Both the position numbers and the translations under genes were made by a program. The notes below the pieces were generated by a model that was given only the letters and a program-made list of their open reading frames with translations, was not told the origin of the DNA and ran no database searches. Shown here one piece after another: positions 19,480-60,847 of a stretch of 64,000 nt of DNA. Source of the stretch: a virus; IMG/VR virus record IMGVR_UViG_3300025601_000016, positions 6,867-70,866 of that record, one strand, 5' to 3'. The stretch's first letter is position 1; every line of letters begins with the position of its first letter.

Positions 19480-22400
19480 ATGAGCGATAATGTTCTTAGA
19501 AAGCAGCTACAACTGCTTGGTGAGGAATCCTTAAAAAACGCTACAGAGCCTACAAGGCCCTCTTACCAACCCCTATCTGTGCGACAAGCAATAATAGGCA
19601 TAGGTCCTCAAGAAGAGTATCAGCTCGATCGCAATGCTCTTACGGGAACTGAGTTTAGACGCAAATACGGCGAAGTCCTCTATAAAAGAGACTATGAGTC
19701 TTATGCTCCTGGATCAAATAAAGGTCCTTATTCGGATGCAGCACTTGAAGCTCGTAGTCGTACTACTGGTGAACATGTAAATGACGCTAGCCGTCAGGTA
19801 GCCGCAGGAGTAGTTGGCCTTGGTGGAATTATTGCTAACTTTGGTTTGCTGACAGTAAGTGCTTCACAAAACTACAGCCCAATTACTCTTGCCAACAATA
19901 TGACTGGTGTTGTTGAACCAAAAGTAGACTCGAGAGAAGCCAGAGCCAAGACCCAAGAGTTTACTAAAAAAATTCAAGAAGAAATTTTGTCTGGCGAAAC
20001 TGCTTCAATGAAAGCAAAGACAGATGTAGCGCAAAGACAAAGAGACATATTGTTTGCGGACTCTGAATATAAATACGAACAAACAAAAGCAGCCAGAGAT
20101 CCTAATGACAAAATAGGTCAGTTTTTTGATGCAGTAGGTAAATTTGGTCGCGATTCTGCTATTGAAGCAGCAGTACTTGACAATAATCCATCCGTAAAAG
20201 GCAAGCTTGTAGCAGAGGCAATAGGTTCTACGGGACCTGCTCTTTTGGTTACAGGCGGTACGTCTGCTCTTGGTTCCAGACTTCTTGCCGCAACCACCCT
20301 GAAAGCAGGGACTAAAGAGGTTGCTAAACGAGGAATTACATCGTCGACTATTGGTCTTATAGAAGGCCAGGGTGCTTACAATGGAGCAATTGCTGAAGTA
20401 AACGCAATGACTCATGAGCAGCTCATGAAGTCTCCTGATTACAAAGCCCTTATTGATGCTGGTTGGTCTGAAAAAGACGCTAAGATTTATATTGCAGATA
20501 AAGCTGGTGTTAGAGCACAGCTTATACAAACAGCTCTGGGTACTGCTGCAGGCTATGGTGTTGCAAAATTTGAAGCAGCACCTTTCAGTAGAGCAGTCAC
20601 TGCCAAAAATATTAAAACAGTTGCTTCTCAAACAATCGAAGAAACATGGCAGGGTGCCACGGGTCAACTATCCTCTAACCTAGGTATAAGAGAATACGCA
20701 GATCCTAACAAAAACCTTACGGCTGGTGTTGGTCAAGCAGCTACACAAGGTTGGATAGGCGGTATGTGGTCAACACAGATCATTACTGCTCCGCCTTTGC
20801 TTGCTCACGCAGTCGGCAAAGTTGCTAATAAAACAGGATCTATTGCAAAGTACGGCATTGCAATTCTAGCTGATAAGCAAAGAGCCAGAATGGAGCAAAG
20901 AGGTCCTCTTGGCGATAAGGCTATTCAGGAAAGCATCACTATTTTTGATGACATTGTCACTAAAGCAAACGGCATAGCTGTAGACAGTCAAGAGATTCTC
21001 GCCGCTGAGCCAGGTAGCATTGAACCTGCAGCTTTGGACGAGCTTCTAGCAAATCTAGAGCAGGTCAAACAAATTCCAGATGTCTTTATTGACACTGAAT
21101 CTGACGTTTATAAAGCACGCACAGAAAAATTCAGTGACGATGTTATCCCTGGTTCCAGACTGGCTACACTCCAGAATGTCCTAAAAAAACTCGTTGCTGA
21201 TCCTAAAAGCAAAGACGCGTATAAAGACAGTGATCAACTGATTGCTGCATCTGAATTTGCTGTCGAAGAATGGGCTGCAGTTCAGGAGTTCAGAGATACT
21301 GTGCCTGACTTTGATCTAGAAGCTGCGGCAACTGTTGAACCAAATACCGCAAAGCCTGAGCCCACAATGGCTCAAGTAGCTAAGATGACTCTGGATAATC
21401 TTTTGCAAGGACGTGCCTTTGTTCAAGGCATTGAAAAAGCAAATGAAGTCCTTAACACATCTAACAAAACGAGCGCCACGGTTCGTGATGTTATGGAAAA
21501 CCCTGTTGGCACCAAAACAGAGAGACTGAACAACACAGACACCTCTAAGTTTACGCCAATTCAGCTCAAAGCACTTGAAGTTGCTAAGGCTGCACAAGCG
21601 CCTGGTGAGTCAAAAACAGGAGCTACACAGAAAAGCCTGGAGCAAACCGATAATACTACGGAAGAAGTCAGAAAACAGCTTCTTTTCCAACCTACCAGTC
21701 AGCCGTATCGTGAAGTACCTTCTGTTAATAAGCTTTTGTCCATCATATTCAAAGGTGCTGAAAGAGCGTCTAGAGCTTCTGATGGTGAAGCTAAGTCTGA
21801 AGGTATAGAGTCTTCAGTTGCGGCAGAGCGTTTGCAGAATCTGGTTCAAAACCAAATCAACAAAGTAAATGCTGGATTTGAGTCAGAGATATTTATTCCA
21901 CTTAATCCTGGAAAAGACGGTAACATAAAATACGAAACTCTTCGTCAGGATGGCGGTGGCTTTTCGACAAAAGAAGACGGCAATGCTATTTATGTTAACC
22001 CTAAAAATGCAAGTTCTTTAGAAACGTTTCGTCGTGTCATTGATGATACGAACACAGGCATTCGCGTGTTTAATGAAGCTTTGAAACAGTTTCCTGAGCT
22101 GTTCCCAGAAGGCACAAAACCATTCACGGAAATAGCTGCAAGATCTGCTCCGGAGGTTTCTACAAAAGATGTCCCTAAGAAATCTAAAGATAAAAAAGCC
22201 AGTCAAGAAACCGCTGATCGGAACAATACCGATGATGGCAGGGATAGTTCTGTTCCTGGTTCCACTGCTGCTTCTGTTGCTAAAGACAATCTCACCAAGG
22301 TAGGTTCAGATGTTCTGAGTCTTGATGAGCTGTTTGGTGATCAGCCTCTTACGACTATAGAACAAGCTCTTGATTACCTGTCGTCGCTTAAAAATCTGAC

Positions 22401-25400
22401 AGCTACTCAAAAACAAATCAAACTTCTCATTGAGAAGAGTGCTGTATTCAAGCTGAATCCAGACATCAAAGTCAGACAGGGTACTTCAGCAGAGGCTGTC
22501 TCCAAATCAGATGGTTGGTTTGACCCAGCTAAAAATGAGATCGTTGTATTCAATGACTCTATTTCTGATTTGCTGCATGAGATGTTTCATGCTGTCACAT
22601 TAGAGGTTTTGAATCAAAACCTTCTTAAAGTGGAAGCACAAGGAGAAGCTCGTACAGACGCTGAGAAAGCTGCTCAAGAGCTTTGGAACTCTGCTCGAGG
22701 CTTTCTCGCTTTGGAACCAGAAAACGCTACCATGGAGCGCGTCCAAGCTATTATGGATGCATTGATTGATGACAACGAAGACCGCGGCGGTATTCAAGGA
22801 TACGTGTACGCAATCAATGAGTACATGTCTTATGGTCTGACTAAAAAAGAAGTGTCAGATCTTAAAACCGAAAACGAGTATGCACGTCCTTCAATTGCTG
22901 CGGCCGTTAAAGTCTTCATTAAACGTATGTTCAATGTAGGCCCTAGTTCTTCTATTTTTGATGAAGTCTATATGCGGTCAAGCATTCTGGCTCTTGATGA
23001 GACAACCGCCAAAGCTATTCAAAAAATCAAAAACAAGGCTGCTAAAAAAGAAGCCAAGAAAGCACCAAAAAAAGACCCTATCCCTGTTGAGACAGCGGCA
23101 CCGATTGAGGAAGCCACGCAGCCGAAGGCTGACGTGGCTGACGAAGTTGCCGCGGTGGATTCTGCTTATATCACCCAGAGTGAATCTGCTGTTGCTGCTG
23201 TCAAGGAAGCACGAGATAAGACTCGTGAATTGCTAAGTAAGCTTAATTTCAAGTTTGAAGATACTTCTGACGTTAGTCTTTTGAATCTTGAGCGTATTGC
23301 CAGTAAATACATTACAGGTCTTCATAACGATGACCCAGTATTTTTGGATGAAGCTTCCAGAGCTCTTTCGTATGCGCTTTACACAGACATAAATGAATCT
23401 GTGAAGGTTAAGATCCCACGATCTGTAATCGAGACATCTCTTCGTAGCTGGCTTGAGACCGGAACTCCTCCGAAAATCGACAAAACAGTTTGGACTGCCA
23501 TTATCAATTCACTGAATAAATTGATGTCATTTTTCAGTGGCAAAGAGTTTGTTAACATTGAACGCGCACTTGCAGACACAATTACAGGAATCACTACAAG
23601 CCGCGATTATTCTTTCAAACCCCAGGCTGGGTTTGAGAAACTAGTCTTCCAAAAAGAGATGGGTAACAATCCTCTTGCAGTTCAAGTACTCACATCTTTG
23701 ATCAAATCAGGGCTGAATTTTACTCTTACTGGCTCTGTGGCGTATGCAGACCAAGTTCCTATATACCGTAAAGCAAACAGCCCGCTGCATGATGTAGATC
23801 TGCTTTTTAAACCTGATGATGTGGATGCAGCATTTGAATGGTTTTCAAACGGAGACCCCGAAAATTGGGGTGATGCCAAGACACTTTATACATTTACTCC
23901 AGGTGGAGTTAAAGTCATAGGTCTTGCGGTTGTGCCTGCTGGGTATGAAATTAGAAACGTTAGCTCTACTTGGAATGTTAAGGCAAACAATCCTCAGCGT
24001 AGTTATGATGTGCATGACAAAAAAACAGGCGAAAAAGTAGGCAGCTACTTTTTTCTTCGTGGATCCAAAGAAACATTTGAAGGTATCGCAGGTATTACTA
24101 TTGATTTGATTGCAGAGGTTAGAGAGTCAAAAATACCTCAGACATTTAATCATAACGGGAAATCATTCACTATAGACGTCTCTAGTTACGTTGGTGGCTT
24201 TGCTGCTAAGCTGAGTATGCTCCGTCCTAAAGACGTAGTTGATTTTAAAGCTGTGGTTCCTCCTGTTAGACAGGTTATCAGTGATACAACCGAAGAAACA
24301 AAACCAACTGCTGTCAAAAAAGATGAACCAAAGTTTAAAAGCCAAAAGCGCGCTTTTATTGCAAAACACGAAGCTATGGAAAAGTTGCTTAATAGGCAGA
24401 AAAACAGAACTGATCTGAGCGATAAAGGTAAAGAAAAGCTTAAAGCAGATCTGCTTGTTTTAGCTGAAAACAAAGTTCTTTACGAAGCATACAAAGCTGA
24501 TCTTGAAATGGGCACAGACACTCAGCCTGTTGATCCAGTAGTTACTAATACAACAACACCATCTGCTAAAGCCGTTACGCCAACAATCGTTAAAAAAGAC
24601 GAACCAAAATTTAAAACCCAAAAGCGCATTAGCCGTGCAGATCTAAAAACCAATCCAGATACTTTGTATTTGTTTGGTGATAACGACCAAGGCAAAGGGT
24701 TAGGTGGACAAGCAAAAGAGATGCGGGGCGAGCCTAATGCTGTAGGTATACGCACCAAGAACTCTCCTTCTACAAAACCTGAAGCATTTTGGTCTGACGA
24801 TACTTACGAACAAAACAAAGAGAAGCTCAATGAGGATTTTCAGCGTGTTGTAGATCATATTAAAAATGGGGGCAAAGTTGTCATCCCTCAAGATGGTCTT
24901 GGCACAGGGTTGTCTGATCTATCTAATAAAGCACCTAAAACACTGGCGTACATAGAAGCTGTTCTTGTTCGCCTAGAGGCTTTGAGTCAAGGTGCTGTTC
25001 CTAAAGCAGCGCCAACAGTTTCTACAACTAAATTGAATTCTGCAAAAAGCAGAAAAGATTTACGCTTTGGAGTCACTCGTTTAAGAGACGCTGAAGGCGA
25101 GCTTTCAAACAATTATACAGTCGAATTTAATCCTGAATGGACTGCTCGTATTGAGAAGCTTATTGCAGATGACCAAGATCCTTTTGGTTCAAATTCTTAT
25201 CTAAACAGTTTTCTCAATAAAGAGGTTTTTGCTCTTTTTGAAAAAGGGAACACTAATTCTATAGACCCAAGCGGTGGTGAATTTTTTAATGGTAAATTTC
25301 ATTTTACTACAAACTGGAATTCCTCAGACGCCAGTATTCAAGAAGAATATTTCAATCCGTCTCCTGATAATCTAGATTTCTTCAAAGAGGGTACTTCACC

Positions 25401-34529: not shown

Positions 34530-34603
34530 TACTCTGTATGGGACTTGAACCCATATTACCTTGTTTAACTTTACAAGGGTCTTACCAATTAAATGAACAG
34601 AGT
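34530..34603 (-). tRNA. atypical tRNA or pseudo-tRNA (Asn-like GTT in an 8-nt anticodon loop, no encoded CCA)
   Basis: acceptor ACTCTGT/ACAGAGT, D loop AATTGGTA, anticodon stem CTTGT/ACAAG, loop AAAGTTAA, T arm ATGGG-TTCAAGT-CCCAT. Confidence 0.7.
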
Positions 34604-51370: not shown

Positions 51371-51447
51371 TGGTTCACCCGACAGGACTCGAACCTGTGA
51401 CCCTCCGCTTAGAAGGCGGATGCTCTATCCAGCTGAGCTACGGATGA
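51371..51447 (-). tRNA. tRNA-Arg (anticodon TCT)
   Basis: full cloverleaf: TCATCCG/CGGGTGA, TAGCTCAGCTGGATAGAGC, loop CTTCTAA, GGTTCGAGTCC, encoded CCA. Confidence 0.97.
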
Positions 51448-58819: not shown

Positions 58820-59191
58820 TCACTTAACGGGACCAAGCATACGCGCAACGGTGTTGATAGCGTATTGCTTGGCGTAAGCGGCTTTAGGATCCTTAGTAAA
58901 GGAAGAGGTCTTCGTTTCACGAAGAGGAGTAAGTCGACCTGAAGCAACGCCAGCGTTCCAGTAATAGCGCAAACCTGCACTGAATGCAGACATGAACAAG
59001 CCTCCAGCTACGCCACCCATGACACCAGCTGTAGAGCCGATGCCTTTGAGTGCCCAGATGAAGAACAATGTTGATGTTATGTCTATTACTTTGGAGTGCT
59101 GTGCATACCAACGAACGCCCTTCGTATTGATGAGCAAGAATGTGGCAGCACAGAAGCAGACGAGGCCAAGGCCCATTGCGTCCATAAGCAT
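58820..59191 (-). CDS. early membrane protein
   Basis: TGGAGACT RBS, start MLMDAMG; Gly-rich TM segments. Confidence 0.8.
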   Translation of the reverse strand: MLMDAMGLGLVCFCAATFLLINTKGVRWYAQHSKVIDITSTLFFIWALKGIGSTAGVMGGVAGGLFMSAFSAGLRYYWNAGVASGRLTPLRETKTSSFTKDPKAAYAKQYAINTVARMLGPVK

Positions 59192-59235
59192 GAGTAAAGT
59201 CTCCAGTTTATGAGTGATCACGTAGTCAAGCCACG

Positions 59236-59258
59236 CACACAGTCCGGCACGGACTCTT
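59236..59258 (-). promoter_or_regulatory. vRNAP hairpin promoter P5
   Basis: CAC-ACA-GTCCG-GCA-CGGAC-TCTT (compensatory stem change). Confidence 0.85.
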
Positions 59259-59268
59259 TTAGCGTAAG

Positions 59269-59306
59269 AAAAAAAACCAACCCCCAGCCCGAAGGCTGGA
59301 GGTTGG
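59269..59306 (-). terminator. Rho-independent terminator
   Basis: CCAACCTCCAGCC-TTCG-GGCTGGGGGTTGG then T8. Confidence 0.92.
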
Positions 59307-59536
59307 AGTTCACAAGTAGAGTTGGAGACTACACTTGGTGAACAGTGTGTCTCGAATCTTACCCTAAAGATAAGTGAGCAGTTTATCGACATGCTCAGGT
59401 ACACCCGGTTCTTAATGAGCCTACGCAGGGAACCGGGAAGGTTGCGTAGCGGTAGATGTGCGACTTTACCTCGGCATAACCCGTGAGCAGGCTGGTTGTT
59501 CGAAGAACCAGTTTTCCAGGAGGCGCACCCTCCTAC
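59269..59536 (-). ncRNA. putative early non-coding RNA with two pseudoknots
   Basis: bounded by promoter P4 and a strong terminator, no RBS-led ORF, dense base pairing. Confidence 0.7.
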
Positions 59537-59556
59537 TCAGGCCGGCACGGCCCCTT
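59534..59556 (-). promoter_or_regulatory. vRNAP hairpin promoter P4
   Basis: TAC-TCA-GGCCG-GCA-CGGCC-CCTT. Confidence 0.85.
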
Positions 59557-59557
59557 T

Positions 59558-59956
59558 CTACTCTGTGAGAGCAGGAGGAGCCGAGACGACTTCAGGTTCG
59601 TAGTAGACAACGTTCACTCGCTCTTTGCCATACATGGCAGTAGCAGCAGTGATCATATGTCTTGTGCCTTTGGACTCACCGTCCCAGAATGCACACAAAT
59701 GGTTAGCATGAGCAGCCATCTCGGCATTGCGCCGATAGCCTGCAGACTTACCATATTGCTTCCAATCAGGGAGAAAGCGATCAATAGGCTTATCGTGAAT
59801 ACGAGCCCAGCGTTCCCCAAGGGAATCAGCTCCGTTGGCTCCACCTGATACAACGATGCAATCAACGTTCTCCCACTCAGTGAGAGCCCATTTGAGCAGG
59901 TTATAATCAGTAAAGCCACGGGAACCCGCGATGATAAGTTTAGGCATAATAGCCAT
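59558..59956 (-). CDS. SLOG-superfamily (YspA/DUF2493-like) protein
   Basis: LIIAGSRGF.DY, VSGGANGAD..GE.WA, GKSAGY.RN.EM, FWDG.SKGT.HMI. Confidence 0.88.
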   Translation of the reverse strand: MAIMPKLIIAGSRGFTDYNLLKWALTEWENVDCIVVSGGANGADSLGERWARIHDKPIDRFLPDWKQYGKSAGYRRNAEMAAHANHLCAFWDGESKGTRHMITAATAMYGKERVNVVYYEPEVVSAPPALTE

Positions 59957-59996
59957 AAGAGTCTCCATCTTTAAATGACGCCAGAACATCTGACGA

Positions 59997-60019
59997 CACA
60001 CCGCCACGCAGTGGCTCTT
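59997..60019 (-). promoter_or_regulatory. vRNAP hairpin promoter P3
   Basis: CAC-ACC-GCCAC-GCA-GTGGC-TCTT. Confidence 0.85.
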
Positions 60020-60646: not shown

Positions 60647-60847
60647 CTAAGCAGCTTCTGCTTTAGGAGCAGGCTTCTTGACTTTGCGTGGCTTAGCCTT
60701 GACAGGCAGAGCAGCACGAGCTTCGTCAACAGACTTCTTGGCGATTATGGCGATCATAGCCCAGATACCGCTGAGAGCGACGCCGAGCGAGATGACAATG
60801 ATCTTACCAAAGGTAGCCCAGGTAGCGAGAAGGAAAGCAGTGAACAT
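60647..60847 (-). CDS. first early gene: membrane-anchored basic protein
   Basis: TGGAGACT RBS, MFTAFLLATW..., Lys/Pro/Ala-rich tail. Confidence 0.8.
   Translation of the reverse strand: MFTAFLLATWATFGKIIVISLGVALSGIWAMIAIIAKKSVDEARAALPVKAKPRKVKKPAPKAEAA

Follow-up and report, generated by a model that had tools for sequence, protein, structure and literature searches.

Small RNAs of phages are known, very few of them with a function. In phage T4, the leader of the gene 32 mRNA carries an H-type pseudoknot near the RNA 5' end, where it serves as a protein-recognition site. For the N4-like phage LUZ7, putative late small RNAs have been described (accessible text of PMC9163698), and the early promoters of the N4 virion RNA polymerase (vRNAP) are reported as hairpins centred at -11 (accessible text of PMC4496689). 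In our text searches of openly accessible papers, no account of an RNA gene transcribed by an injected virion polymerase was found. Here we analyse a candidate for such a gene in an IMG/VR virus record of 70,866 nucleotides (nt), of which bases 6867-70866 were studied; this whole stretch of 64,000 nt is called the window below. The element in question is a transcription unit of about 266 nt on the minus strand, which begins at a hairpin promoter near 59540, ends at a terminator at 59269 and holds no gene.

We read this unit as a stand-alone gene for a trans-acting, non-coding, structured early RNA, centred on a pseudoknot, in an N4-like phage, and we put the probability of this reading at roughly 40%. 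An earlier interpretation of the letters alone (the sequence-only reading) had proposed a unit of this type encoding a double-pseudoknot RNA. What we have found is narrower than that proposal, i.e., one supported pseudoknot, an apparently dispensable 5' third and a very small lineage.

The gene-free unit and its first pseudoknot

The structural proteins encoded in the window match solely N4-like phages, every one at less than 60% identity, and the window contains a giant open reading frame (ORF) of 4816 amino acids (aa), taken to be the vRNAP gene. Together these features indicate that the source phage is a divergent, uncultured member of the Schitoviridae. Near-identical DNA occurs in 24 listed runs, labelled as salt-lake metagenomes. 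The 123-aa protein encoded just downstream of the unit forms one 90% cluster with six members, and two JGI metagenome contigs that encode it, L081 and L082, share 86-90% identity with the window across 4-5 kb. Three haplotypes have been compared: A is the window itself, B occurs in X7, X17 and, in part, X13, and C is the L081 type, also found in X22. Reads were taken from four runs; coverage is partial in X13, X17 and X22, and nothing was inferred from the uncovered parts.

Seven DNA hairpins with a 5-bp (base-pair) stem and a TGC loop are located on the minus strand between 60908 and 57884, and the promoter motif GKCCGTGCCGGMC, expected 0.06 times in the window, is matched there 4 times. Such recurring hairpins with 3-nt loops before early genes, combined with the giant virion polymerase ORF, have the architecture of N4 vRNAP early promoters as judged from the DNA, with the difference that the template-strand loop has C at its centre here and a purine in N4 (accessible text of PMC4496689). 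Six of the seven hairpins each precede a gene led by a ribosome binding site (RBS), with products of 66, 75, 132, 123, 154 (+61) and 124 aa, as the sequence-only reading had claimed. Solely the fourth promoter heads a unit without a gene. It begins 6 nt past the stop codon (59560-59558) of a gene of the SLOG/YspA family (Pfam PF10686, E 3e-13), and since N4 promoters have the hairpin centred at -11, the RNA is predicted to start near 59536/59535.

At the other end, a GC-rich stem-loop is followed by a U-tract, as in an intrinsic terminator, and in L081 and L082 the stem has another sequence with full pairing retained. The fifth promoter hairpin lies 15 nt past the U-tract, followed by the RBS and the ATG (59191) of the 123-aa membrane protein; in the relatives this hairpin reads GCCCG-TGC-CGGGC, a compensatory change relative to GTCCG/CGGAC of the window. 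The U-G pair of the terminator, the U8 tail and the promoter direction agree on the minus strand as the RNA strand. Overall, the claim that a promoter and a UUCG/U8 terminator enclose about 270 nt without an ORF has held up (about 266 nt, no conserved ORF), and an autonomous non-coding unit with its own N4-type promoter and a strong terminator is supported by the sequence comparison.

Only two ORFs exist on the RNA strand. A 20-codon GTG frame (59528-59466) adjoins AGGAGG; it is deleted in L081, L082 and X22, and in haplotype B it has two non-synonymous changes and one synonymous change. A 194-codon frame (59404-58820, minus strand) enters the 123-aa gene from upstream, so that this gene is in frame with 71 stop-free codons spanning the terminator and the gene's own promoter. 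In the relatives, indels of 4, 2 and 1 nt interrupt the long frame, and an AUG at 59392 opens just 9 codons in L081. Two public gene calls, P0001 and P0006, start upstream (169 and 181 aa), and their N-terminal extensions align neither with each other nor with the window frame; because they are mutually unalignable, they are annotation artefacts. As both frames are lost or shifted in the relatives and these extensions cannot be aligned, nothing in the unit codes for protein. A frame conserved in relatives, by which a small-protein gene would be recognised, is not found here, so the short frame that could have undermined the sequence-only reading leaves the unit ORF-less.

The helices proposed for the RNA are all present on the minus strand, with standard pairing at 69 of 69 pairs in ten helices. 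The minimum free energy (MFE) of the whole RNA has a z-score of -4.5 with the terminator and -2.95 without it, and in the latter case 2 of 200 shuffles fold equally well. Within the RNA, the conserved body amounts to ~185 nt (59453-59269); over its first 82 nt (59453-59372), neither L081 nor L082 has a single difference from the window, against the overall identity of 86-90%.

The first pseudoknot carries the strongest evidence. Its two helices are disjoint and interleaved, the loops that span them (5, 2 and 9 nt) plausibly make an H-type fold sterically feasible, and each helix has one covarying pair. When the 228-nt body is shuffled with dinucleotides preserved, a pair of interleaved perfect helices with a combined length of 15 bp or more within 70 nt arises in only 3 of 1000 cases. 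L081 and L082 match the pseudoknot segment at 100% identity; haplotype B has four substitutions in 59404-59449, namely 59446 C>U with 59424 G>A and 59435 C>U with 59406 G>A. These amount to one C-G to U-A swap in each helix and are found in runs X7 and X17. For ten randomly placed substitutions, at least two compensatory pairs among the 69 pairs of the model occur with a frequency of 0.001. Since the structure had been proposed before any variant was known, haplotype B is a fair test of it, and the first pseudoknot of the sequence-only reading has passed both this check in natural haplotypes and the comparison with shuffles. We thus regard it as supported by sequence that both helices are maintained by natural compensatory change. 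As for energies, S1 as an isolated duplex has -8.9 kcal/mol, and forcing S2 costs 2.3 kcal/mol in the window or 0.6 kcal/mol in L081 relative to the nested MFE fold.

Table 1. Positions of the features discussed, numbered in the window; helix sequences are given as RNA and promoter hairpins as DNA.
Feature	Position	Strand	Basis or variation
Hairpin promoter of vRNAP type, GGCCG-TGC-CGGCC, fourth of seven	59552-59540	-	motif match
Variable 5' domain with hairpins UAGGAGG/CCUCCUG and CUGGUU/AACCAG and the 20-codon frame	59535-59456	-	haplotypes A and B; 12 nt instead in C
H-type pseudoknot 1, loops 5, 2 and 9 nt	59449-59404	-	pairing, shuffles, haplotypes
Helix S1, CUACGCA/UGCGUAG, 7 bp	59449-59443 with 59427-59421	-	all Watson-Crick
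Helix S2, CCCGGUUC/GAACCGGG, 8 bp	59437-59430 with 59411-59404	-	all Watson-Crick
Hairpin UGAGCA/UGCUCA, 6 bp, 11-nt loop	59397-59375	-	invariant in all haplotypes
Linker hairpin CUUAUC/GGUAAG	59374-59358	-	loop altered in B; gone in C (4-nt deletion and substitutions)
Hairpin GAGACACACU/AGUGU-A-GUCUC	59353-59325	-	such a hairpin in 41 of 3000 shuffles; top pair open in B, two pairs shorter in C
Competing nested hairpin, GUUCAC/GUGAAC + AAGUG/UACUU + AGU/ACU, apical loop CUCCA (59327-59323)	59343-59308	-	suboptimal folding
AGUCUCCA, exact complement of the RBS UGGAGACU	59330-59323	-	invariant in all haplotypes
Intrinsic terminator, 13-bp stem including one U-G pair, UUCG loop, U8	59306-59269 (stem 59306-59277)	-	sequence
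Next promoter hairpin GTCCG-TGC-CGGAC, end mark of the RNA unit	59254-59242	-	drives the 123-aa membrane-protein gene 59191-58820
Three further TGC-loop hairpins	60908-60896, 60404-60392, 60015-60003	-	stems GGGGC/GCCCC, GTCAC/GTGAC, GCCAC/GTGGC
RBS UGGAGACU of four early genes	60858-60851, 60364-60357, 59967-59960, 59205-59198	-	8-nt motif

Flanking domains, surroundings and distribution

The two sides of the pseudoknot are less uniform. The 5' hairpins UAGGAGG/CCUCCUG and CUGGUU/AACCAG do have the pairs claimed for them, but they fall within a 79-nt segment that the relatives swap for 12 nt: in haplotype C, 59455 and 59535 are joined across the missing 79 nt by 12 letters. At this site the relatives form a small GGUGC-UU-GCACC hairpin, and the window segment sits within it. 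No repeat copies of the insert exist elsewhere. In the nested MFE fold the 5' segment can pair with the 3' strands of pseudoknot 1, and the 79-nt segment could, on this folding model, be a lineage-specific anti-pseudoknot module.

On the 3' side, the hairpin UGAGCA/UGCUCA is invariant and therefore gives no covariation signal either way; the linker hairpin CUUAUC/GGUAAG, proposed alongside it, is missing in haplotype C. The substitution 59344 U>C opens the top pair of the next hairpin (59353-59325) in haplotype B, and in C this hairpin is two pairs shorter. Its loop GUUCAC (59343-59338) complements GUGAAC (59313-59308) and this complementarity is invariant; given the hairpin, a 6-nt match between the loop and the downstream sequence has ~3% probability by chance. 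However, the second pseudoknot that the sequence-only reading had built on this match has no covariation, and a nested hairpin competes with it, at -12.4 against -14.0 kcal/mol in the window (within 1.6 kcal/mol) and as the MFE structure in L081. This nested hairpin has the GUUCAC/GUGAAC pairing plus 8 more pairs, and it shares nucleotides with the hairpin 59353-59325, so that the two are mutually exclusive. Because the same GUUCAC/GUGAAC pairing is used in the nested hairpin, the double pseudoknot is not established, and a 3' module with two states is, from the modelling, a reading at least as good as a second pseudoknot. In addition, CUCCAAC occurs twice in this part of the minus-strand RNA, at 59321-59327 and 59302-59308, 19 nt apart, and both copies are kept in L081 and L082. 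The first falls in the apical loop region of the alternative hairpin; the second begins right before the terminator 5' strand and reaches into it.

Several observations concern the neighbourhood of the unit. The SLOG gene unit (59558-60015, promoter 60015-60003) lacks its own terminator, and as none is located before 59306, its transcripts should, judging from the sequence, cross the fourth promoter and carry the structured RNA as a 3' untranslated region (UTR). Directly after the U-tract, the relatives have an insertion of ~45 nt (L081 1278-1322; L082 3998-4042), consisting of a second imperfect hairpin (GAAGCCCUGG...CCAGGUCUUC) and then a T-rich run; this second hairpin may be a tandem terminator. 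The RBS motif UGGAGACU is longer than the usual anti-Shine-Dalgarno pairing would explain, and two more early genes have the RBS GGAGGACU. As for tRNAs, Rfam detects two in the window, 34530-34603 (35.8 bits) and 51371-51447 (67.6 bits), and ARAGORN just one, tRNA-Arg(UCU) at 51371-51447.

No family could be assigned to the RNA, as the sequence-only reading had anticipated. With Rfam 15, these two tRNAs are the only matches above the gathering threshold in the whole window and none falls in the RNA unit, riboswitches, ribozymes and CRISPR repeats included; even with E relaxed to 10, the list for 59150-59650 is headed by rnk_pseudo (35.5 bits versus a gathering threshold of 55), which covers the last hairpin and terminator only. 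RF03044 has no match in the window or in the scanned N4 right-end stretch. Among cultured phages, blastn of 59200-59620 gives no match, and the 151-nt core gives 18 records, all at no more than 31% coverage with a best E of 0.04. In IMG/VR, the promoter pattern has 0 matches, the loop-only pseudoknot pattern has 4, none with complementary stems, and the 123-aa neighbour protein has no match. The core pattern has 0 matches in GTDB genomes. None of the 79 loci obtained from a search for neighbours of the SLOG gene (identity at most 56%) has the RNA. A covariance model of the RNA (R1), when run on the SLOG loci, recovers only its own three source sequences and one 9-bit match (E 9.2). On the right end of coliphage N4 (a 6154-nt locus), R1 finds nothing in the gp70-gp71 gap (best 6.2 bits) and Rfam gives 0 matches. 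A DNA search of related records is also negative (0 of 5). It seems that the RNA is confined to a very small lineage.

The nearest near-complete relative, G001 (L164), has a capsid protein 84% identical to that of the window phage. Its early promoter hairpins at 21740-24075 have 6-7 bp stems and AGA, AAA or AGT loops, followed by a TTGCTGA-like sequence; all four hairpin promoters stand before genes, and its early RBSs are AAAGGAC/T. Since the early genes of G001 are unrelated and the promoter hairpins are different, the turnover of the early region is complete even at 84% identity of the capsid proteins.

A number of candidate functions and approaches have been rejected. For tRNA mimicry, no relation to the phage tRNA-Arg was found. 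A stimulator of frameshifting or read-through for the SLOG gene does not fit, with the pseudoknot 109 nt (window) or 42 nt (L081) past the stop, and in the case of SLOG read-through the frame stops after 6 codons. The layouts of the hepatitis delta virus (HDV)-like and pistol ribozymes were dismissed too: no P3 hairpin lies between the strands and no Rfam match exists. A genome-wide duplexfold target scan was discarded, with self-antisense topmost and long loops inflating the energies.

Weighing the readings

In our ranking, the pseudoknot-centred protein-binding RNA comes first, followed by an anti-RBS regulator, a cis-acting element, a relic, a priming or entry function and a ToxI mimic. For the first of these, the mechanism would run as follows. 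The RNA would be made by the injected virion RNA polymerase in the first minutes of infection, ahead of any phage protein. It would then work in trans as a decoy, sponge or cofactor for a host or phage protein, which would recognise the pseudoknot. The 3' module, with its two mutually exclusive hairpins and the terminator, would provide stability and possibly a switchable second site, while the 5' 80 nt would be a dispensable, lineage-specific insertion.

Several points weigh against this view. The protein partner and the protein-binding mechanism in trans are pure conjecture. The transcript is predicted from DNA, none of the 24 listed runs being RNA. Only three haplotypes are available, all within about 86-100% identity. 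In haplotype B, the RNA has 10 substitutions in its 266 nt, a higher density than that of the flanks compared (4 in 235 nt), and its contigs are shallow, with depths of 5.6 and 2.9, although the same four changes in pseudoknot 1 are found in both runs. Haplotype B is also compatible with the nested MFE fold predicted for the window, by way of wobble pairs, with 6 one-sided changes kept, 2 broken and 0 compensatory. Template switching at inverted repeats in the DNA could, in principle, produce apparent compensatory change even if the RNA is not under selection. The hairpins 59397-59375 and 59353-59325 show no covariation, and the deletions that the relatives have in the 5' domain and in the linker are also expected of a decaying cassette. 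Moreover, G001 lacks the RNA and its early region is unrelated, and R1 finds the RNA in 0 of 40 N4-like IMG/VR records (the longer contigs among 80 loci), 16 of which are at least 90% complete.

The alternative that survives best is a riboregulator, in which the RNA pairs through AGUCUCCA with the early RBS UGGAGACU and thereby damps or times early translation, as an RNA counterpart of early-mRNA shut-off. We regard it as unlikely. In its favour, the core TGGAGACT occurs 6 times in the window, i.e., in 4 early RBSs, once inside the vRNAP gene and once as the antisense copy in the RNA. At the genes at 60845 and 60350, the complement is as long as 10 and 9 nt, respectively; such a complement is found by chance in 127 of 20000 shuffles of the RNA. 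Where the contigs of the relatives reach, the motif is kept at 3 of 4 RBS sites (3 copies in L082, 2 in L081), the SLOG site being the one not kept. In addition, the alternative hairpin, the MFE structure of L081, displays CUCCA in its loop with a second CUCCAAC copy 19 nt downstream, and G001, which lacks the RNA, has different early RBSs. On the other hand, the complement was spotted post hoc, and the GAGAC/GUCUC stem hides most of the 8-mer in the MFE fold predicted for the window. When the seven early initiation regions are cofolded with the 3' module, the gains of 3.6-9.2 kcal/mol rank at the 4th-63rd percentile of 5103 background segments and are unexceptional. L081 has AAGAGACU as its SLOG RBS, without a counterpart change on the RNA side, and the conserved pseudoknot is left unexplained by anti-RBS pairing.

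The RNA may also act in cis, either as the 3' UTR and terminator of the SLOG mRNA or as a leader or attenuator for the gene of the 123-aa membrane protein. Among riboswitches, a pseudoknot with a terminator behind it is common. From the SLOG stop to the RNA there is no terminator, so that transcripts from 60015-60003 should pass through, and the downstream gene begins 78 nt past the U-tract. This explanation is nevertheless improbable, given that a complete promoter hairpin stands exactly at the RNA start, that the downstream gene has its own promoter so close to the U-tract, and that the relatives place their additional ~45 nt with the second hairpin between the terminator and that promoter. 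No conserved antiterminator pairing has been seen; the sole GGAGG complement to the terminator 5' strand is in the dispensable 5' domain. No riboswitch family is detected at E up to 10, and the unit does not present itself as a riboswitch or attenuator.

Alternatively, the unit could be a functionless relic of a lost early-gene cassette, whose folds arose by chance or by template-switch repair at the DNA level. The large and small indels that separate the haplotypes would fit a relic, as would the fact that the unit is missing from the nearest near-complete relative and the 40 N4-like records. GAGAC...UGUUCAC resembles the region from RBS to start of the first early gene (UGGAGACUACCAUGUUCAC), and the substitution density of haplotype B is not lowered in the RNA. 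What makes this quite improbable in our view is that two independent compensatory swaps are located exactly in both predicted helices of pseudoknot 1 (P ~0.001), that the 82-nt core is wholly identical against a background of 86-90%, that pseudoknot 1 is rare in shuffles, and that the terminator is preserved via a compensatory change.

The act of transcription itself might matter at the DNA level, for priming of replication or for entry of the genome. T7-type origins employ promoters of the phage RNA polymerase, which is a point for priming. Early transcription by the N4 vRNAP also moves the genome into the cell (accessible text of PMC4496689); however, neither priming nor entry needs a conserved pseudoknot or a strong terminator, and six other units already supply transcription across the region, which renders this role very improbable.

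A ToxI-like type III antitoxin mimic against a ToxN-type abortive-infection toxin, which the sequence-only reading had suggested and which the pseudoknotted, protein-free and early nature of the unit as well as the known escape of phages by pseudo-ToxI would favour, is extremely improbable, as the defining tandem direct repeats (~34-36 nt) are absent (0 rows of Tandem Repeats Finder (TRF) at a score of at least 30, with just three short two-copy direct repeats) and no ToxI or other antitoxin family is found at E up to 10.

Significance and comparison with known systems

An RNA made by the injected vRNAP would be the earliest possible phage product and free of translation, hence ideal for counter-defence or takeover. 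A more specific version of our reading, which we hold to be distinctly unlikely, is that of a first-strike effector, in which the pseudoknot captures a host defence or takeover target before phage proteins exist. No RNA effector would have been assigned earlier to the vRNAP early programme of the Schitoviridae. If the 3' hairpins form a switch, the same molecule could later expose the anti-RBS loop and shut down the surrounding early genes. The uncultured phage and the narrow lineage are weaknesses. Still, the finding provides a concrete candidate with defined ends, a pseudoknot with natural compensatory variation, a dispensable domain and a testable RBS motif.

Compared with the systems described so far, the RNA shares features with several and agrees fully with none. 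The T4 gene 32 leader acts in cis on its own gene, whereas the present unit holds no gene. ToxI resembles it as a protein-binding pseudoknotted RNA engaged in conflicts over phage defence, if the present RNA does bind a protein as we infer; ToxI, however, consists of tandem ~36-nt repeats processed by the toxin, whereas the present RNA has neither repeats nor an Rfam match. The LUZ7 transcripts, compared here by their description in the accessible text of PMC9163698, are likewise short (<250 nt) non-coding RNAs of an N4-like phage; they differ in being late, overlapping and partly processed, in lying in the orf69-orf70 gap, and in lacking a link to a vRNAP hairpin promoter. The put RNA of HK022, as described in the accessible text of PMC4496689, is also gene-free, structured and located just downstream of an early promoter. 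It acts in cis on the host RNA polymerase and suppresses terminators, while the present unit ends at an efficient-looking terminator and its neighbours have promoters of their own.

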